Source of the DNA: Halobacteriaceae archaeon
GTDB lineage: Archaea; Halobacteriota; Halobacteria; Halobacteriales; Halobacteriaceae
Direction of reading: 5' to 3'
DNA length: 35,707 nucleotides
NCBI GenBank assembly: GCA_042216675.1
Contig: JBDGTS010000043.1
Location: forward strand, 1 to 35,707
This document shows, piece after piece, positions 2,142 to 10,770 of the stretch (position 1 is its first letter; each line of letters begins with the position of its first letter). The notes beneath the pieces were generated by a model. The model saw only the letters and a list, made by a program, of their open reading frames with translations, was not told the origin of the DNA and ran no database searches. A program made the position numbers and the translations under genes.

Positions 2142-3257
2142 CTATTCGCCGCCGCTCCCGTAGATGGGGCCTTCGTCCTGTCCGTTGGGTTCGGGGTCGA
2201 AGATGTCGGTCTGTTTGTCGCCGAGGACGTCGATTTCGGCGAGGAGTCCCTTGCGGGCGACCCGACTGAGCGCGTGGTCCACGAGTTTGATGCGCTCGGG
2301 GACGGGGCACTCCATCGTCCCGACCATGCAGGACCCCGGCGGGACCTTCATCGTCTGGACGTTCTTCTCCGTCGGCCCTTCGAAGGCGCCGTCGCGGTAG
2401 CCCTTCGCCCAGACGTTGCCGATGGGGTGGAAGTTCGAGGAGACGTTCGGACCGCCGTCGACCATGAACACCCGGACGGAGTCACCGACCGAGACCTCCT
2501 TCGGCCCGTAGCGGGCCGCCGCGTAGGCGTACTTCTCGCCGTTGAGGAGGACGTACGTTGGATCCTCGGCCTTCATCGCCTCCATGTCGAAGGCGTGGTG
2601 CCCCTTCGCGCCCGTCGGCTGCTTCGTGTAGACCTCGTGCTGGCCGAAGTAGAACTCGTGGTCGACCTCGGGAAGGCCCTCTTTGGGTTCGACCACGATC
2701 ATCCCGAACATGCCACTGGAGATGTGGTAGTCGAGGTTCGGGACCGCACAGTGGTAGATGTACGCGCCGGGGTACGTCGCCTTGAACTTCTCGCTGTTGG
2801 ACTCGCCCGGGGCCGCGGTCGTGGCGACGCTGCCGCCACCCGTCCCGTAGATGGCGTGCATGTCAACGTTGTGCGGCATCTTGTTGTCGGGGAGGTTCTT
2901 CAGCGTGAACGAGACGGTGTCCCCCTGCCGAACGCGGAGCATCGGGCCGGGGACAGTCCCCCCGAAGGTCATGTAATCGAAGGTGACGCCGGGTTCGATT
3001 TCCGCGGTCACCTCCTCGACTTCGAGCGTGATGTCGTGGTGTTTCGGCTCGTCGCGGTCGATGGGCCCGGGCATGTCCGCGGGGTCACGCGCGACTTGGT
3101 CGACGTCGGTCTGCTTGGTCGTCGCCTGTTGCTGTTGCTCGCTGGGGGTGGGGTCCTCGTCGGCGTTCGACGGTGCGTTCGCGGAACAGCCCGCCACCGC
3201 GGCCGTCCCACCGATGCCCAGTGCCTGTAGCGCGCGACGACGAGTGCTTTCGAACAT
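2142..3257 (-). CDS. nirK: Copper-containing nitrite reductase, Tat-exported lipoprotein
   Basis: Type 1/type 2 Cu motifs PHNVDMHA, YHCAVPNLDYHISSGM, SSNFHPIG, LVDHAL. N-terminal TRRRAL twin-arginine and AVAGC lipobox. Confidence 0.96.
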   Translation of the reverse strand: MFESTRRRALQALGIGGTAAVAGCSANAPSNADEDPTPSEQQQQATTKQTDVDQVARDPADMPGPIDRDEPKHHDITLEVEEVTAEIEPGVTFDYMTFGGTVPGPMLRVRQGDTVSFTLKNLPDNKMPHNVDMHAIYGTGGGSVATTAAPGESNSEKFKATYPGAYIYHCAVPNLDYHISSGMFGMIVVEPKEGLPEVDHEFYFGQHEVYTKQPTGAKGHHAFDMEAMKAEDPTYVLLNGEKYAYAAARYGPKEVSVGDSVRVFMVDGGPNVSSNFHPIGNVWAKGYRDGAFEGPTEKNVQTMKVPPGSCMVGTMECPVPERIKLVDHALSRVARKGLLAEIDVLGDKQTDIFDPEPNGQDEGPIYGSGGE

Positions 3258-3295
3258 GGTTGGGTTCCTCGCACGTGGAGTTCGGGGCCCGACCC

Positions 3296-3406: not shown

Positions 3407-3418
3407 CGAACGTGTTCG
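3407..3418. promoter_or_regulatory. Palindromic operator CGAACGTGTTCG upstream of halocyanin
   Basis: Flanked as CCGAAC-GT-GTTCGG. Lies 38 nt before the in-frame GTG at 3457. Confidence 0.75.
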
Positions 3419-3462
3419 GGAGAACGCACGTGCCCGACAGGGACTCACCTACACCCGTGGAG

Positions 3463-3924
3463 ATGACTGACACCGACGACAGCCCGGCAGTTCGGCGGCG
3501 GACCGTTCTCTCGACAGTCGGCGCGGCCGCGGGCGTGGCGCTCGCTGGCTGTTCCGGCGGGGGCGGAAGCAGCGACGGCGGCGACAACGGCGGCGGTGGC
3601 GGGAGCGACAACACCGTCGCGGTCGGCCCCGGCGGCGACTTCAAGTTCAAGCCCGAGGAACTGACAGTCAGCAAGGGAACCACGGTGACGTGGGAGTTCA
3701 AGAGTAGCAGCCACAACGTGTGCGCGTGGCCGGACATGCACGACAAGGTCTCGATTCCCGACGGCGCCAGCGGCTTCGGGACGATGGATCAGGGCGGCGA
3801 CGCCTACGCCACCGTCTCGAAGGGCGAGACGTTCGAACACACCTTCGAGACGACGGGTGAATACACGTACGTCTGCATGCCCCACGCCGCCTCGGGGATG
3901 GTCGGAACGATAATCGTCGAGTAA
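3463..3924 (+). CDS. Halocyanin / plastocyanin-azurin family blue copper lipoprotein (alternative start GTG 3457)
   Basis: RRRTVL Tat motif, LAGC lipobox, Gly/Ser linker, type 1 Cu ligands HNV...YVCMPHAASGM. Confidence 0.93.
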   Translation: MTDTDDSPAVRRRTVLSTVGAAAGVALAGCSGGGGSSDGGDNGGGGGSDNTVAVGPGGDFKFKPEELTVSKGTTVTWEFKSSSHNVCAWPDMHDKVSIPDGASGFGTMDQGGDAYATVSKGETFEHTFETTGEYTYVCMPHAASGMVGTIIVE

Positions 3925-4892: not shown

Positions 4893-5537
4893 TTATTTGA
4901 GTGTAGTGTTGTCGTCCGCGTCGAGGAACTCCGTCACGATGCGGGATTCTGCCCGATGAAGCGTCTCGCTACAGGTAGACTTGGCGATGCCCACCTCCTC
5001 CGCGAGTTCGGTCAGCGAGCACTCCCGTGGCGTGTCGTAGTAGCCGTGGTCGGCCGCGGCGCGGAGGAGGCGCTCCTGTCGGTCCGTGAGAAGCGGATCC
5101 GGTTCGATGCGTTCGCGGATGTGCTCGACGGTGAAGGAGACGCCGAAGGCGTCCAACTGGTCCCCCAGCGCCGAGAGGCTGTCACGCGGCGCCGTCACGT
5201 CCCACGTGGCTTCGCCACCCTCGATGTCGAACGGCATCTCAAGCGGGATGCCCGAGTCCTGCACCGCTAACAGCAACAGCGGCGTCGTCGTCTCGAACTG
5301 GATGAGGGCGGTGTCCTCGTGGCGGTGCAACAGGTCGAGCGCCGTCACCTCCTCCCGGTCGTGGACCGCCGCGACGACGTCTGGGAGGTCCGGCCCCGAG
5401 AGCTCAGCGTGCCCGACGCCGGTCCCCCCGTCCGCGAGCGCCGCGAGGATGCGGAACCGGACCGACGGGTACTCCCGCGACACGTCGCCGATCCACGCCC
5501 CCTCCGGTATGGTGAGGGTCAGTCGCGCCCGTGGCAT
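4893..5537 (-). CDS. Bat-type (HTH_10) transcription regulator with an N-terminal sensor-like domain
   Basis: C-terminal LTDRQERLLRAAADHGYYDTPRECSLTELAEEVGIAKSTCSETLHRAE is the HTH_10 signature. Confidence 0.9.
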   Translation of the reverse strand: MPRARLTLTIPEGAWIGDVSREYPSVRFRILAALADGGTGVGHAELSGPDLPDVVAAVHDREEVTALDLLHRHEDTALIQFETTTPLLLLAVQDSGIPLEMPFDIEGGEATWDVTAPRDSLSALGDQLDAFGVSFTVEHIRERIEPDPLLTDRQERLLRAAADHGYYDTPRECSLTELAEEVGIAKSTCSETLHRAESRIVTEFLDADDNTTLK

Positions 5538-5614: not shown

Positions 5615-5626
5615 CGAACATGTTAC
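5615..5626. promoter_or_regulatory. Degenerate operator copy CGAACATGTTAC upstream of the HTH_10 regulator
   Basis: 10/12 match to CGAACATGTTCG. Overlaps the DUF2249 stop codon. Confidence 0.5.
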
Positions 5627-5880
5627 CTCTCCCAGATGGCAGTCACGACGGCGTCGGCCGTCTCGACCGTCTCGTACTCGTAGCCTCGGTCGATTAGTTT
5701 GGGGTAGAGGTGCTGGGGCGCCCGGTCGTTCAACTGGACGAGGACCGTGCCCGGGTCCATCTCCTCGACGCGTTCGAGCGTCTCGGCCAGCGGTTCCGGT
5801 GGCGGCAACTCCCGCACGTCGAGTCGCGTGCGCGTGCCGTCCGGCGCGTCCGTGTCGTCCACCGCACTCTCGACTGACAT
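5623..5880 (-). CDS. DUF2249 domain protein (SirA/TusA-like fold, no persulfide cysteine)
   Basis: ATG at 5880. LDVRELPPPEPLAETLE...NDRAPQHLYPKL is a typical DUF2249 pattern. Confidence 0.85.
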   Translation of the reverse strand: MSVESAVDDTDAPDGTRTRLDVRELPPPEPLAETLERVEEMDPGTVLVQLNDRAPQHLYPKLIDRGYEYETVETADAVVTAIWER

Positions 5881-5918
5881 GTGCGACCGTTCGGGCCGCC
5901 ACCGGGGGAGGGTTCTGC

Positions 5919-5930
5919 CGAACATGTTCG
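5919..5930. promoter_or_regulatory. Perfect 12-bp palindrome CGAACATGTTCG between divergent DUF2249 and cysK
   Basis: Perfect inverted repeat 38 nt upstream of the DUF2249 ATG. Confidence 0.8.
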
Positions 5931-6005: not shown

Positions 6006-6950
6006 ATGGACGTTGCCGACGACTTGACAGACCTCGTGGGGGAGACGCCGCTCGTGGACTTCGGCGGCCTCGCGCCGAACCTCTATGGCAAGGTGGAGGC
6101 CGCGAACCCCTACTCGGTGAAAGACCGCATCGCGCGCGAGATGGTCGAGCGAGCGGAGGACGCGGCCGAACTCGACGCCGGAACGCGCGTCGTCGAGGCG
6201 ACGAGCGGCAACACCGGCATCGGCCTCGCGGCCATCTGCGCCGCAAAGGGGTACGACCTGACGCTGACGATGCCCGCCTCGATGAGCGAGGAGCGACGGG
6301 ACCTGCTGGTCGCTCTCGGCGCCGACCTCGTGTTGACGCCCGCGGACGACGGGATGGGCGGCGCCATCGAGGCGGCTGAGGACATCGCCGACGGCGACGA
6401 CGCCATCCGACCGCGGCAGTTCGAGAACCCGGCGAACCCCGATGCCCACCGCAAGACGACGGGACCCGAGATCTGGGCCGCCACGGACGGTGACGTGGAC
6501 GCCGTCGTCGCGGGCGTCGGCACCGGCGGCACCATCACCGGCGTCGGCGAACACCTCGTCGAGGAGCGAGGCGCGGACGTGCGGATGGTCGCCGTGGAAC
6601 CCGAGGGGTCGCCGCTTCTCTCGGCGGACGACCCCGGCGACCACGGGATTCAGGGCATCGGCCCGAGTTTCGTGCCCGACACGCTCCGCCGCGAACTCGT
6701 GGACGACGTGCGCACCGTCGCCACCGACGACGCGAAGGCGACGGCGCGGGACCTTGCGGCCGGGACGGGCCTCCTCGTCGGCATCTCCTCGGGCGCGGCC
6801 CTCGACGCCGCCATCGCCGAGGCCGAGGAGCATCCCGACGACGTGGTGGTCGTCGTCCTCCCCGACACCGGCGAGCGTTACCTCTCGACGGACCTGTTCG
6901 AGGGCGGTGAGGGCTCCGTCGCCCGCCTCGAAGCACCGACCGGCGACTGA
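6006..6950 (+). CDS. cysK: PLP-dependent cysteine synthase (O-acetylserine sulfhydrylase family)
   Basis: NPYSVKDR (PLP Lys), EATSGNTG, QFENPAN, GVGTGGT, IQGIG, PDTGERYLST. Confidence 0.88.
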   Translation: MDVADDLTDLVGETPLVDFGGLAPNLYGKVEAANPYSVKDRIAREMVERAEDAAELDAGTRVVEATSGNTGIGLAAICAAKGYDLTLTMPASMSEERRDLLVALGADLVLTPADDGMGGAIEAAEDIADGDDAIRPRQFENPANPDAHRKTTGPEIWAATDGDVDAVVAGVGTGGTITGVGEHLVEERGADVRMVAVEPEGSPLLSADDPGDHGIQGIGPSFVPDTLRRELVDDVRTVATDDAKATARDLAAGTGLLVGISSGAALDAAIAEAEEHPDDVVVVVLPDTGERYLSTDLFEGGEGSVARLEAPTGD

Positions 6951-6962
6951 CGAACACGTTCG
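6951..6962. promoter_or_regulatory. Palindromic operator CGAACACGTTCG upstream of the CGCGG/radical SAM operon
   Basis: Begins immediately after the cysK stop and ends 38 nt before ATG 7001. Confidence 0.78.
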
Positions 6963-7000: not shown

Positions 7001-7294
7001 ATGACCGCGCTCGCAACCGACGACCCCGTGACCGACCGCGTCCACGAGAACTCGTGGTCGGCGAACCTCGAAGAGCCACGACACGCCGACGACCGGGCAC
7101 TCGTCGTCGCACAAGCCATCGACGCCGTCCGGCACACGGCGCCGGGGCACCACGTCAACCTCGTGAGCCACGGCGACCACGGCCACCCCGAGGAGTACCT
7201 CTTCGCGGCCCTCGACGCGGCCTTCGAGGAGGCCGAGTACGAGTTCGTCGAGCGCTGTGGCTGTGGCGGCTACGTCACCCGCGTCCACCGATGA
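7001..7294 (+). CDS. CGCGG-family small protein (His-rich, C-terminal CGCGG motif), usually annotated as a putative rSAM-modified peptide
   Basis: NSWSANLE, HHVNLVSHGDHGHP, RCGCGGYVTRV. ATGA overlap with the radical SAM gene. Confidence 0.85.
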   Translation: MTALATDDPVTDRVHENSWSANLEEPRHADDRALVVAQAIDAVRHTAPGHHVNLVSHGDHGHPEEYLFAALDAAFEEAEYEFVERCGCGGYVTRVHR

Positions 7295-8358
7295 TGGGGG
7301 CCATCGACACGGACGAGCGACCGGTCGTCCTCGTCTGGGAGGTGACCCAAGCCTGCGAACTGGCCTGCGAGCACTGCCGGGCCGACGCGCAACCCGACCG
7401 GCACCCCGACGAACTGTCGACGGCCGAGGGGAAGGCGCTCCTGCGCGAGGCGGCCCAGTTCGGCGACGATCAGTTGGTCGTCCTCTCGGGAGGTGACCCG
7501 CTAGTCCGCGACGACTTGCCCGAACTCGTCGAGTACGGCGTGGACCGCGGCCTCCAGATGACGCTCACCCCGAGTGGAACGGCACACCTCACGCCCGAGC
7601 GAATCCGCGAACTCGCCGACGCGGGCCTGCGACGCCTGGCGCTCAGCATCGACGGCGCAACCGCCGACTCTCACGACTCGTTTCGCGGCGAGGAGTGCTT
7701 CGCGGACACGCTGGCGGCCGCCCGCGCCGCGAACGAGGCGGGCATTCCGGTGCAGATCAACACCACCGTCTGTGCGTCCACCGCCGAGGACCTGCCCGGC
7801 ATCCGCACCCTCGTCTCTGACCTCGACGCGGTGCTGTGGTCCGTCTTCTTCCTCGTGCCAATCGGCCGCGGGACGGCGCTCGACCCCGTGTCGCCGGCGC
7901 GCGCCGAGCGCATCGCCTCGTGGCTCTGCTCGGTGCGCGAGAGCGAGGACTTCGGCATCAAGACGACGGAGGCCCCGTTCTTCCGGCGCGTCGCGGCCCA
8001 ACGCGGCGAGGGCGGTCCCGGCGCGCGCCGCCCCGGAATAACGGCCGGCGACGGCTTCGCGTTCGTGAGCCACGTCGGCGAGGTGTACCCCTCCGGCTTC
8101 CTCCCCGAGTCCGCCGGCACCGTGCGCGGGGAGAGCGTCGTCGACATCTACCGGGACAGCGACCTGTTCGAATCGCTTCGGGACCCCGACGCCCTCACCG
8201 GGAAGTGTGGCGCCTGCGAGTACCGGGGTCTCTGTGGCGGGAGTCGCTCGCGGGCTTACGCCTGCACGGGTGACCCCCTCGCGAGCGACCCGCTCTGTGC
8301 CTACGTCCCCGAGTCCTACGACGGCCCCATCCCGAGACAGGAGGTGGCGCGATCGTGA
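7291..8358 (+). CDS. ahbD: Radical SAM/SPASM protein of the NirJ/AhbD-like group (TIGR04053-like), probable anaerobic coproheme decarboxylase/heme synthase
   Basis: WEVTQACELACEHCRA (CxxxCxxC), SGGDPL, SIDG, C-terminal CGACEYRGLCGGSRSRAY...DPLC. The ahbD label rests on my recollection of the nirK-adjacent radical SAM of Haloferax and is less certain than the family call. Confidence 0.7.
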   Translation: MMGAIDTDERPVVLVWEVTQACELACEHCRADAQPDRHPDELSTAEGKALLREAAQFGDDQLVVLSGGDPLVRDDLPELVEYGVDRGLQMTLTPSGTAHLTPERIRELADAGLRRLALSIDGATADSHDSFRGEECFADTLAAARAANEAGIPVQINTTVCASTAEDLPGIRTLVSDLDAVLWSVFFLVPIGRGTALDPVSPARAERIASWLCSVRESEDFGIKTTEAPFFRRVAAQRGEGGPGARRPGITAGDGFAFVSHVGEVYPSGFLPESAGTVRGESVVDIYRDSDLFESLRDPDALTGKCGACEYRGLCGGSRSRAYACTGDPLASDPLCAYVPESYDGPIPRQEVARS

Positions 8359-8615
8359 GCGCCCTCGAAACAGAGGAATCCGCGCTCGCGCGGCGGATTC
8401 GGGACCGCGGCGAGGAGATTCGACGCGAGGAGCTGTCGCAGGCGCTCTCGAAACTCGACGACCTGACGCCCGCCCAGCGACGGGCCGTCGAAGAGATGAC
8501 GGAGAACGTCGTGGACGCGCTTCTGACCCCGCCGGCGGAAGCGATTCGGGACGCCGAGGACCCCGAGACGCTGGCCGCGGCGCGGGCCGTGTTCGACCCG
8601 GAGAGCCGACACTGA
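8355..8615 (+). CDS. Stand-alone glutamyl-tRNA reductase (HemA) C-terminal dimerisation-domain protein
   Basis: EEIRREELSQALSKL..LTPAQRRAVEEMTENVVDALLTPP...IRDA....AARAVFDPE matches the GlutR_dimer helical pattern. GTGA overlap with the radical SAM stop. Confidence 0.75.
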   Translation: MSALETEESALARRIRDRGEEIRREELSQALSKLDDLTPAQRRAVEEMTENVVDALLTPPAEAIRDAEDPETLAAARAVFDPESRH

Positions 8616-8644: not shown

Positions 8645-9361
8645 ATGGCCGCTATCAGGACCGAGGGGTTGGCGAAGACGTACGGAGACCTCAGAGCGCT
8701 CGACGGCCTCGATGTGGCAGTGGAGCGCGGCGAACTGTTCGGCTTCCTCGGCCCGAACGGTGCGGGCAAGACGACCACGATTCGGATTCTCACCGGCCAA
8801 CTCCGCCCGGACGCCGGCGAGGCGTCGGTGCTGGGCGTCGACCCGGTGGCCGAACCCGTCGCAGTGCGCGAGAAAATCGGCGTCCTGCCCGAACGTGAGT
8901 CGCCGCCGGCGTTCATGACGCCCCGGGAGTACTTCGAGTTCGTCGGCACGGTGCGCGGGATGGGCGACGAAACAATCGCGTCCCGCGTCGAGACGTGGGC
9001 CGACAGGCTCGACTTCGGCGCGAAACTCGACACGCTCTCGACGGACCTCTCCCGGGGCCAACAGCAGAAGGTGATGATAGCGCAGGCGTTCCTCCACGAC
9101 CCCGACGCGGTGTTCATCGACGAACCGTTGGCGAACCTCGACCCAATCGTGCAGGAACGAGTCAAGGCGTTCCTGCGGGAGTACGTGGCCGAGGACAACG
9201 CCGCGTTCATCTCGACGCACGACATCGGCGTCGCCGAGGAAATCTGTGACCGCGTCGGCGTCGTCACCGAGGGGGAACTCATCGCGGACCGCGACCCGTC
9301 GGCGCTCGGCCCAGACGAGTCGCTGTTGGACCTGTTCTTACACGACGTGGAGGGGTCGTGA
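8645..9361 (+). CDS. ABC transporter ATP-binding protein (exporter type)
   Basis: Walker A GPNGAGKTT, signature LSRGQQQK, Walker B VFIDE, H-loop STH. Confidence 0.93.
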   Translation: MAAIRTEGLAKTYGDLRALDGLDVAVERGELFGFLGPNGAGKTTTIRILTGQLRPDAGEASVLGVDPVAEPVAVREKIGVLPERESPPAFMTPREYFEFVGTVRGMGDETIASRVETWADRLDFGAKLDTLSTDLSRGQQQKVMIAQAFLHDPDAVFIDEPLANLDPIVQERVKAFLREYVAEDNAAFISTHDIGVAEEICDRVGVVTEGELIADRDPSALGPDESLLDLFLHDVEGS

Positions 9362-10770
9362 TGGGCGTCACCCGCACCGTCTTCGCGGCGATGGTGCGCG
9401 AGGAGTGGCGCCTCCACGCGGACCTGTTCGGCGGCCGGCGCTTCGCCGCGTTTCCGCTCGTCGTCCTCGCCGTCGGCGCAGCGACGGTGGCGGCGCTGGT
9501 GGAGACGGGCACGCCCGCGGGGCAGGTGGTGGCCGGCTTCCACGCCCTCGTCTTCGTCTTCGGCCTCCATACGGGGTCGCTGGGCTTCGTCGGGCGGGAC
9601 GCGCTCAGAGGCGTCTTGGAGGAGATGACGCTCATCATCTCCTCGGCGCGGACGCTCCCCATCTCCCAGCGCCGCCTCTTCGCCGTCTTCCTCGTGAAGG
9701 ACGCCTGCTACTACGCGGCGCTGTTCTTGCTCCCCCTGTCGCTCGCGTTCGCGCCGGCGCTGTCGCTCGCCCGACTCCCCTTGCTCTGGCTTTCGACGGC
9801 CGTGACGTTCACCTTCGGCGTCGTCGTCACGTTCGCCGCCATCGCGCTCTCGACGCGGGGACTGTCCGGCCGACTGCTCCTCCTCGGTGCGGCGGCGGCG
9901 CTCGGCCTCGGGTGGGCCGCGGGCCTCGACCCGGTGGGTGCGACGCCGTACGCGCTCTACGCGGCGCCGCTCTCGACCGGCGCGGCCGTCGCCGTCCTCG
10001 CGGTGCCGGCGCTCGGCGCGTTCGGCGTCCTCGCCTTCGACACCAGTTACGTCCGCCCGGCCCGGACCGGCGAGAACGGCTTCGGACGCTGGCAGAACCG
10101 CCTGCCCGGCGGGGACCCACTCGTCGCGAAGAGCCTCCTCGACGTGGCGCGGAGCGGTGGCGGGTTCGGGAAGGTGCTGTTCTCCGCGGGCGTCCTGTTC
10201 GCCGTCAGCGCCGGGCTGGTGGGCCTCGTGGAGTCCATCACCGGCGTCGAACCGTCGTTTCCGGTGTCTCTCGGGGCGATTCTCGGGCTGACGGGGTTCA
10301 CGACGTACAACTGGCTCACGCAGTTCGACGGCCCGGACACCTACGCGACGCTCCCTGTCTCGACGGCGGCGGTGTTCCAAGCGAAGTTCCGGGCGTTCCT
10401 CGTCCTCGGGCCGCCCGCGGCGCTTGGCTTCTACGCGCTGGCGGCGGCGTGGCGCGGCGGTGCGGCCGGCGAACTGCTCGCCGGCGCGGCGCTGGTGGTC
10501 GGTTTCGTGGTCTATCTGTTCGGCCTGACCGTCGCGCTCTCGGGTCTGAGGCCGAACGAGTTCCTGTTCGACACGGCGCTGTTCGCGGCGTTCGGCCTCG
10601 GCGTGGCGGTGCCGCTGGTGCCCGTCCTCGTCGTCGGTTTCGTCCTCGCGCCCTACGAGGTGGCGACGCTCGGCGCACTCGTGGCGGTCGGAGTCGCCGC
10701 CGCGGCGGCGGGCGTTTTCCTCTATCGACGCGGGATTCCGCGCTGGGAGCGCCGCTATCGGGAGGGGTAG
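9361..10770 (+). CDS. Multi-pass membrane protein, probable ABC exporter permease
   Basis: More than 10 hydrophobic helices. Two halves each contain a TLP(I/V)S motif. Overlaps the ATPase stop (TGATG). Confidence 0.8.
   Translation: MGVTRTVFAAMVREEWRLHADLFGGRRFAAFPLVVLAVGAATVAALVETGTPAGQVVAGFHALVFVFGLHTGSLGFVGRDALRGVLEEMTLIISSARTLPISQRRLFAVFLVKDACYYAALFLLPLSLAFAPALSLARLPLLWLSTAVTFTFGVVVTFAAIALSTRGLSGRLLLLGAAAALGLGWAAGLDPVGATPYALYAAPLSTGAAVAVLAVPALGAFGVLAFDTSYVRPARTGENGFGRWQNRLPGGDPLVAKSLLDVARSGGGFGKVLFSAGVLFAVSAGLVGLVESITGVEPSFPVSLGAILGLTGFTTYNWLTQFDGPDTYATLPVSTAAVFQAKFRAFLVLGPPAALGFYALAAAWRGGAAGELLAGAALVVGFVVYLFGLTVALSGLRPNEFLFDTALFAAFGLGVAVPLVPVLVVGFVLAPYEVATLGALVAVGVAAAAAGVFLYRRGIPRWERRYREG

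Follow-up and report, generated by a model that had tools for sequence, protein, structure and literature searches.

Tetrapyrrole synthesis as a whole is controlled at glutamyl-tRNA reductase (GluTR), the product of hemA. Two proteins that act on this enzyme are known from plants: FLU, a tetratricopeptide-repeat (TPR) membrane protein that binds the GluTR dimerisation domain (structure 4yvq), and GBP (5che). We know of no archaeal counterpart of FLU or GBP and, to our knowledge, of no archaeal GluTR regulator, a point on which the literature was not searched. In eukaryotes, microProteins such as LITTLE ZIPPER and the Id proteins consist of a single domain, are paralogous to multidomain proteins, and poison or modulate the dimers that these form. 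Here we describe a gene from a Halobacteriaceae archaeon that is predicted to encode the GluTR dimerisation domain as a free-standing protein of 86 amino acids (aa), and we consider whether this protein may pair with the HemA of the same genome. The gene lies at positions 8355..8615 (+ strand) of contig JBDGTS010000043.1 (assembly GCA_042216675.1), of which the whole analysed stretch of 35,707 nucleotides (nt; G+C content, 70%) is hereafter called the window.

The 86-aa protein resembles the C-terminal dimerisation domain of GluTR (PF00745, GlutR_dimer; Arabidopsis structures 4n7r, 5che and 5yjl) in family, in its three-helix fold and in its interface residues. Unlike GluTR, it has no catalytic or NADPH-binding domain and lacks the start of the spinal helix (profile positions 1-26); it is also without the HemA residue W395, and it is encoded by a separate gene in another operon. 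FLU and GBP are like it in the role that we propose below, as proteins that act on GluTR, and FLU does so at the same domain; however, FLU is a membrane protein, GBP is unrelated to the 86-aa protein, and neither is paralogous to the GluTR domain. The likeness to microProteins lies in a small single domain that is homologous to the dimerisation module of a larger protein and is devoid of that protein's functional domains. Whereas LITTLE ZIPPER and Id are eukaryotic and target transcription factors, the putative target here is an archaeal metabolic enzyme, and the heterodimer is a modelled one. In gene order, the locus is similar to those of PqqD and MftB, in which a gene of about 90 aa is coupled to a SPASM radical S-adenosylmethionine (SAM) gene with a small protein gene upstream. 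The 86-aa protein, in contrast, has no sequence match to PqqD or MftB and is all-helical, and its companion radical SAM enzyme is predicted to be of the AhbD type rather than an established peptide maturase.

Among described loci, the ahbD locus of Haloferax volcanii (HVO_2141, HVO_2144 and HVO_2147) is a cluster of the same type with the same CGAA-N4-TTCG palindrome; the accessible part of its description names no small GlutR_dimer gene (PMC5746218). Haloferax sp. Q22 and H. marisrubri have no small gene within 6 kb of the radical SAM gene, and Haloferax sp. YSSS75 has one adjoining a membrane protein gene. Literature searches found no paper on a free-standing GlutR_dimer domain, none on TIGR04053 by family name, and only unrelated papers for CGCGG with radical SAM. 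The word "glutamyl" is absent from the main text, in its accessible part, of a study of the H. mediterranei denitrification transcriptome, the supplementary tables of which may list the gene (PMC11218638).

The 86-aa gene and its relation to HemA

An earlier note, made from the sequence of this DNA alone, had described an intact 86-aa open reading frame (ORF) with its own coupled start and stop that resembled only the C-terminal helices of HemA. Both observations held. The ORF begins with GTG and ends with TGA, a Shine-Dalgarno-like site (GGAGGTG, 8340..8346, + strand) lies 8 nt before the start codon, and the GTG shares bases with the TGA that closes the upstream radical SAM gene (GTGA, 8355-8358). 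The translation contains the HemA-like motif string that the note had quoted, and a profile search matched it to the GlutR dimerisation family of Pfam (PF00745) with an E value of 1.1e-13 and 51.7 bits (cut-off, 22.9), aligning residues 13-81 with positions 27-98 of the 99 in the profile. In NCBIfam, only hemA models matched, over their last 60-odd positions and far under cut-off. The TIGR01035 match, for instance, reached 18.9 bits relative to a cut-off of 209.55 and covered profile positions 341-402 only; by this test, the protein has neither the N-terminal catalytic domain nor the NADPH-binding domain of a full HemA enzyme.

A full-length hemA of 428 codons, matching PF00745 with 76.6 bits and TIGR01035 with 303 bits, is present on contig C11 of the same assembly (58 contigs, 80% complete). 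When this HemA was compared by tblastn with the whole assembly, it matched only its own gene and positions 8412-8603 of the window, the latter through HemA residues 339-408 alone, with 40-42% identity to the 86-aa protein. Consistent with the earlier note, this search revealed no catalytic or NADPH-domain remnant beside the 86-aa gene, which is flanked by the radical SAM gene and an ATP-binding cassette (ABC) transporter ATPase gene. Fission of hemA was rejected as an origin, because the HemA of this genome retains its own GlutR_dimer domain. The 86-aa protein is thus small, consists of a single interaction domain and is paralogous to a multidomain HemA encoded in the same genome, as is a microprotein. 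The ORF is a real gene whose predicted product, judged by these profile matches, is a domain-only paralogue of the GluTR dimerisation domain. Some haloarchaea carry a second full-length hemA paralogue, as in G292 (locus L138, 5710-8291), where it lies directly 3' of an AhbC-like (TIGR04347-like) radical SAM gene, and G068 (locus L139).

Comparison with orthologues, which the note had suggested, indicated purifying selection. The ratio of nonsynonymous to synonymous substitution rates (dN/dS) of the 86-aa gene was 0.19 relative to L127, a metagenome orthologue with full synteny and 81% identity by tblastn; eight genes compared with that locus gave values of 0.08-0.22, and other orthologue pairs within the family gave 0.2-0.56. 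In a quick maximum-likelihood tree (70 rows, 115 columns, SH-aLRT support only), the C-termini of HemAs formed one group (support 90), which was joined by the CobN-type, or "MTT...", subfamily of free-standing proteins (support 96), the closest to HemA in the tree. On this phylogeny, the free-standing copies are predicted to be old paralogues and not recent fragments.

The AlphaFold model of the 86-aa protein, built on an 88-row alignment, had a pLDDT of 88.2 and comprised helices at residues 3-33, 39-66 and 70-80, with no beta strand. Its five best Foldseek matches in the PDB were all Arabidopsis GluTR chains (probability 0.89-1.00; TM by query 0.57-0.71; weak E values of 0.1-1.9). Similarly, a profile of the family matched the Arabidopsis GluTR dimerisation domain (4yvq_A, E 7.2e-6; 4n7r_A, E 5.7e-5), and the better of these two, which is also the best PDB sequence match, is the complex of the FLU TPR domain with the C-terminal region of GluTR.

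We modelled the 86-aa protein together with residues 296-428 of the genome's own HemA. The complex scored an ipSAE of 0.67 in three runs, while the best of three controls scored 0.01; the mark used for this test is reached by 58 of 80 solved complexes and by 2 of 110 mismatched pairs, and is rough here, where our own alignments were used. At least 93% of the contacts agreed among the runs, and the pLDDT of the partner was at least 78. The free-standing proteins share the HemA consensus residue in 52% of cases at the 35 modelled interface positions, relative to 29% at 35 others (Mann-Whitney p 5e-4), and no non-conservative, group-specific switches were found at interface positions.

The operon, its regulon and the family

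The 86-aa gene is predicted from gene overlaps to be the third, translationally coupled cistron of an operon, and to be co-transcribed with the AhbD-type gene that precedes it. The first cistron (7001..7294, + strand) encodes a small protein of the CGCGG family (TIGR03995, 132.5 bits; cut-off, 70), and its stop codon overlaps the start of the second (ATGA). The second cistron (7291..8358, + strand) encodes a radical SAM/SPASM enzyme (rSAM; TIGR04053, 464.3 bits; cut-off, 395), whose own stop overlaps the start of the 86-aa gene. This operon lies in a cluster with nirK, a DUF2249 gene and an HTH_10 gene.

We take this enzyme to be the AhbD of haloarchaea (anaerobic haem b synthase), because of its synteny with the position of HVO_2144 and its membership of TIGR04053. 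The next best model, TIGR04545 (AhbD haem b synthase), gave 309 bits, under its cut-off of 500. The window rSAM is 64-72% identical to the rSAMs of nirK/norB clusters, and 68% identical to a gene of Haloferax sp. Q22 that stands in the order nirK-DUF2249-rSAM-norB and matches TIGR04053 with 503.5 bits. TIGR04053 was found in 216 of the 301 Halobacteria genomes at E<=1e-80, with 213 over the cut-off, as was the positive control, H. volcanii. In that species, according to the accessible part of the report, ahbD (HVO_2144) is located between nirK (HVO_2141) and norB (HVO_2147), and its deletion blocks anaerobic growth, which protohaem rescues (PMC5746218); ahbD is described, in the part of a second report available to us, as present in two-thirds of haloarchaea (PMC8305020).

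A few observations concern the companions of this gene. In genome G030 (L019/L057, ~7239-8311), the AhbD-type rSAM is apparently split into two overlapping frames, with a TIGR04053 match of 374 bits at model positions 2-306 only, and the small gene downstream is intact. CGCGG genes often lie directly 3' of a qNor-type norB with no adjoining rSAM (L053-L055, L173, L180, L220, L229, L251), and many have no rSAM within 1.5-8 kb. These rSAM-less genes, together with the AhbD reading, question the label of TIGR03995 as an rSAM-modified RiPP (ribosomally synthesised and post-translationally modified peptide); the His-rich and Cys-rich motifs of CGCGG proteins suggest metal or haem handling.

The motif CGAAYATDKTYG has been reported at denitrification-induced promoters of H. 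mediterranei (PMC11218638, accessible part), and the palindrome CGAA-X4-TTCG in the nirK, norB and ahbD promoters of H. volcanii (PMC5746218, likewise). In the window, a palindrome of this form (CGAACACGTTCG, CGAA-N4-TTCG) is located at 6951..6962, 39 nt upstream of the CGCGG start, and is a likely operator, predicted from its sequence, of the denitrification regulon. Eleven matches with at most one mismatch occur in the window, relative to 1.28 expected, a count reached in none of 100 shuffles; besides 6951-6962, they include the starts of nirK, a halocyanin-like gene and the DUF2249 gene. For related carrier loci, we counted CGAA-N4-TTCG palindromes upstream of the first gene in the co-directional string containing the small gene, and found one within 200 nt in 28 of 30, with 0.07 expected per such stretch.

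A profile built from seven free-standing proteins yielded 1249 representatives at E<=1e-3, a number that fell to 241 when E<=1e-10 was required. Of 152 matches examined, 133 were no longer than 170 aa, and the others were HemAs or fragments; all were haloarchaeal-looking in composition, and PF00745 matched each of 88 aligned family members. The family thus consists of haloarchaeal domain-only proteins of 75-160 aa. In the ESM Atlas, archaeal clusters of 94-106 aa with 58-181 members are automatically named "GlutR dimerisation domain-containing protein". The small gene is conserved in at least six family-level groups and in hundreds of 50%-identity clusters. No fusions of the small domain were found: a word-index search for longer proteins gave two full HemAs only, and profile matches of intermediate length resemble HemA fragments or over-called ORFs. 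The word-index search with the 86-aa protein itself returned only three relatives, and a search of genome contigs for related loci (query P0001) returned none. All 301 Halobacteria genomes contain a GlutR_dimer match (HemA), and 87 contain a second at E<=1e-8, a hand count that is an upper bound and includes second full HemAs (at least those of G068 and G292) and CobN-type copies.

Members of the family occupy several recurrent positions. In 31 genomes in which the small gene was located near CGCGG loci, it lies directly 3' of a TIGR04053 rSAM in 16, directly 3' of a DUF2249 gene in 10, after CGCGG without an intervening rSAM in 3, and beside an HTH regulator or a COX1-like membrane protein in 2. 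The underlying 74 CGCGG loci were drawn mostly from genomes with two matches and show position, not frequency; 44 of them have no member in the examined stretch. A qNor-type norB, nirK and a TIGR04347 AhbC-like rSAM recur near the small gene, and in two further genomes of genus g31 the small gene comes directly after an rSAM. An unbiased set of 80 named loci centred on the rSAM has the small gene 3' of the rSAM in 12 cases (11 within ~110 nt of the end of the rSAM match, and one ~500 nt away) and at another place within 6 kb in 4. Among the carriers are Halarchaeum, Haloplanus, Halococcus, Haloarchaeobius, Halorussus, Halomicrococcus and Halopelagius, and a Haloarcula type also has a copy; these named loci and the G-labelled loci may overlap, and their counts were not summed. 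In G211 (L067, 7635-8303), CGCGG and the small gene have no rSAM between them, no TIGR04053 match was found in the genome at E<=1e-80, and the small gene has a divergent C-terminus and a dN/dS of 0.58-0.75, which looks like decay after loss of ahbD.

Other members are found apart from the rSAM. In genus g20, hundreds of kb separate it from the small gene, which adjoins DUF2249, cupin (Cupin_2) and catalase-peroxidase (KatG) genes in G100, G224 and G268 (L129, L130 and L131, ~7900-8400); a bacterial-type globin is also present at the G100 locus. In G227, and in a second copy in G268, the small gene adjoins nirK (L133 and L134, directly upstream of nirK). The "MTT..." subfamily lies in a cobalamin cluster, between cobN (TIGR02257, 902 bits) and cbiC (PF02570), in G308, G306 and G274, which represent three family-level groups (L137, 7986-8357, - strand; L146, ~1486-1842, - strand; L161, 1501-1890, + strand). 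The only theme common to all of these contexts is tetrapyrrole synthesis or use. Whether or not HemA is its target, the family is assigned, by its predicted operators and gene neighbourhoods, to the haloarchaeal denitrification regulon. The earlier note had recognised neither this regulon, nor the AhbD type of the radical SAM enzyme, nor the existence of a large family.

Candidate partners of the 86-aa protein

We tentatively propose that the 86-aa protein pairs with HemA and couples the supply of 5-aminolevulinate (ALA) to haem demand, a reading that draws on the complex model and that we regard as possible rather than probable. Upon a switch to anaerobic, denitrifying growth, the protein would be made together with AhbD, which would catalyse the last step of oxygen-independent haem synthesis. 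Its conserved, HemA-like helical interface would then pair with the corresponding dimerisation domain of full-length HemA, whose gene lies elsewhere, and this pairing would alter the dimer state, stability or partner binding of HemA, the first committed enzyme. As a result, ALA supply would be matched to haem demand, and the sister subfamilies (KatG/globin and cobN-cbiC) would in the same way serve other modules that consume tetrapyrroles. Because the contexts all imply raised tetrapyrrole demand, we speculate that the effect would be activation or protection of HemA, rather than the dominant-negative role that the earlier note had entertained, along with a stabilising role and a tethering of HemA to the radical SAM enzyme. 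Slightly more doubtful is the wider proposal of a haloarchaeal family of pathway-embedded GluTR dimerisation-domain microproteins (in denitrification with AhbD, NorB and DUF2249; with KatG/globin; and with cobN-cbiC), each of which would pair with HemA so that each module would set the flux through the first step.

Several points weigh against pairing with HemA. As GluTR homodimers have already been solved, a pass in the complex test shows likeness, not binding; so, while the model score, the retained interface residues and the tetrapyrrole contexts speak for the pairing put forward in the earlier note, the score obtained with HemA 296-428 may be explained by likeness to solved GluTR homodimers. 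The conserved interface would equally serve a homodimer, and its conservation is expected in any case, because the interface residues form the hydrophobic core of the helical bundle. Outside the interface, residues invariant in HemA have been lost (W395 is shared by 0% of the free-standing proteins, and M334/Y335 are replaced by I/R). The branches of denitrification-type copies are long, the inner ones measuring about 1 change per column compared with 0.1-0.5 for HemA, and the free-standing proteins have therefore been free to gain another partner. The small gene is accessory: 64 of the 80 rSAM loci lack it within 6 kb, and most AhbD-bearing genomes do without it. The presence of TIGR04053 in 82 of the 87 genomes with a second GlutR_dimer locus, relative to 134 of the other 214 (hand counts), speaks for the proposal, but the genomes surveyed are related to one another. 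Finally, a partner within the cluster would equally agree with the tight coupling of the small gene to ahbD or DUF2249 genes. Such a partner is central to an alternative that we consider unlikely, albeit not greatly so, in which the 86-aa protein dimerises with itself as a self-contained helical unit and works within the cluster, for example by serving AhbD, the DUF2249 protein or the CGCGG protein as an adaptor or stabiliser, having taken only its fold from HemA, with which it makes no contact. The overlap of its start with the ahbD-like stop favours this alternative, as do its positions in the 31 genomes (16 after the rSAM, 10 after DUF2249, 3 after CGCGG), the altered C-terminus and relaxed dN/dS of the G211 copy that lacks an rSAM, and the long branches and lost HemA-specific surface residues. 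However, no neighbour is constant, the g20 copy and the rSAM being hundreds of kb apart; tetrapyrrole use is all that the CobN-CbiC and KatG contexts have in common with the denitrification cluster; and the HemA-like interface is retained without insulating switches. A target whose gene lies outside the cluster is favoured by three points: (i) the neighbours vary while membership of the regulon is constant, (ii) a sister subfamily sits in a cobalamin cluster, and (iii) the interface is not insulated from that of HemA.

The remaining explanations are less probable. The 86-aa protein might regulate HemA without pairing, as a decoy that mimics its dimerisation domain and titrates a binder of that domain, which might be an inhibitor like FLU, a protease adaptor or glutamate-1-semialdehyde (GSA) aminomutase. 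FLU binds the same GluTR domain in 4yvq, and the tetrapyrrole contexts apply equally to this mechanism; however, conservation of HemA surface residues is poor outside the dimer interface and speaks against mimicry of an outer surface, and we know of no archaeal factor that binds the GluTR dimerisation domain, a point on which no search was made. We therefore consider a decoy improbable. We hold it highly improbable that the protein serves a CGCGG RiPP precursor as a peptide chaperone, analogous to PqqD or MftB in a cassette of precursor, rSAM/SPASM enzyme and small protein. Such an order does resemble the pyrroloquinoline quinone (PQQ) and mycofactocin cassettes, TIGR03995 is named as a putative rSAM-modified RiPP, and the small gene is directly 3' of CGCGG in three genomes. 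Yet neither Pfam nor NCBIfam gave a PqqD/RRE match at E<=1, on which ground a PqqD-like chaperone was rejected; the model is all-helical, without strands; the rSAM is, by synteny with HVO_2144, an AhbD-type haem synthase; many CGCGG-rSAM pairs have no small gene; and many family members have no CGCGG gene anywhere near them. To the idea that the gene is a functionless, decaying fragment of a former second hemA we attach almost no credence. Second full-length hemA genes do exist in G292 and G068, but the dN/dS of 0.19, the breadth of conservation and the absence of N-terminal hemA remnants led us to reject decay, and the intact frame, Shine-Dalgarno-like site and start-stop overlap likewise argue against it.

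Neighbouring genes and significance of the family

Upstream of the operon, the window contains a copper nitrite reductase gene, nirK (2142..3257, - strand; TIGR02376, 376.9 bits; cut-off, 296.3), a gene for a halocyanin/plastocyanin-like blue copper protein (3412..3924, + strand; under curated cut-offs), an HTH_10 (bacterio-opsin-activator type) regulator gene that is conserved in the neighbourhood by synteny (4893..5537, - strand; PF04967, E 5.6e-20), and the DUF2249 gene, a recurrent partner of the small-gene family (5623..5925, - strand; PF10006, E 1.1e-16). An ArsR-like gene paired with a DUF7521 gene is also found upstream of the operon. The palindrome is centred on called start codons (CGAAC-ATG/GTG-TTCG) at 3251-3262, where it overlaps the start of nirK, at 3407-3418 for the halocyanin-like gene, and at 5919-5930, where a perfect copy (CGAACATGTTCG) lies across the start codon of the DUF2249 gene; the three products therefore all begin M/V-F-(E/G). 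Either these genes have leaderless starts within the operator, or their true starts are further downstream. Between the DUF2249 gene and the CGCGG operon lies cysK (6006-6950; TIGR01139, 372.6 bits), which has the same position in L127 and is near the cluster in L061, L072, L084, L096 and L107.

Downstream, an ABC transporter ATPase gene (8645..9361, + strand; PF00005, E 5.7e-25) begins 30 nt 3' of the 86-aa gene, and its stop overlaps the start of a gene for a 470-aa membrane protein (9358..10770, + strand) that had no family match in Pfam and NCBIfam scans. This pair follows the small gene only in this lineage (window 8645-10770; L127 and L128, in which the synteny is kept), and in other lineages the ATPase gene does not adjoin the small gene; the ATPase gene is possibly on the same transcript as the 86-aa gene, in this lineage only. 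ABC ATPase genes are found 2-3 kb from CGCGG genes at several g20 loci (L080, L121, L123, L124). A membrane protein of ~440 aa ("memb449"; L058, 1327-2673, and homologues) is found repeatedly in the cluster, in many cases no more than 1-2 kb from the small gene, and its family match is a weak, partial one to COX1 (31.2 bits, under cut-off).

If these domain-only proteins do pair with HemA, they would be the first post-translational GluTR regulators in archaea, and they would account for the way in which haloarchaea adjust ALA supply when they switch between aerobic (ChdC) and anaerobic (AhbD) haem synthesis, with the same logic applying to cobalamin and catalase demand. They would also provide a clear prokaryotic example of regulation through mimicry of a dimerisation domain, as a microprotein system directed at an enzyme. 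The work further links the TIGR04053 "RiPP maturase" family to AhbD, a connection based on gene order and membership of the family. Even should HemA not be the target, an uncharacterised family that automatic databases label only as "GlutR dimerisation domain-containing protein" is now tied, by prediction, to the denitrification regulon.

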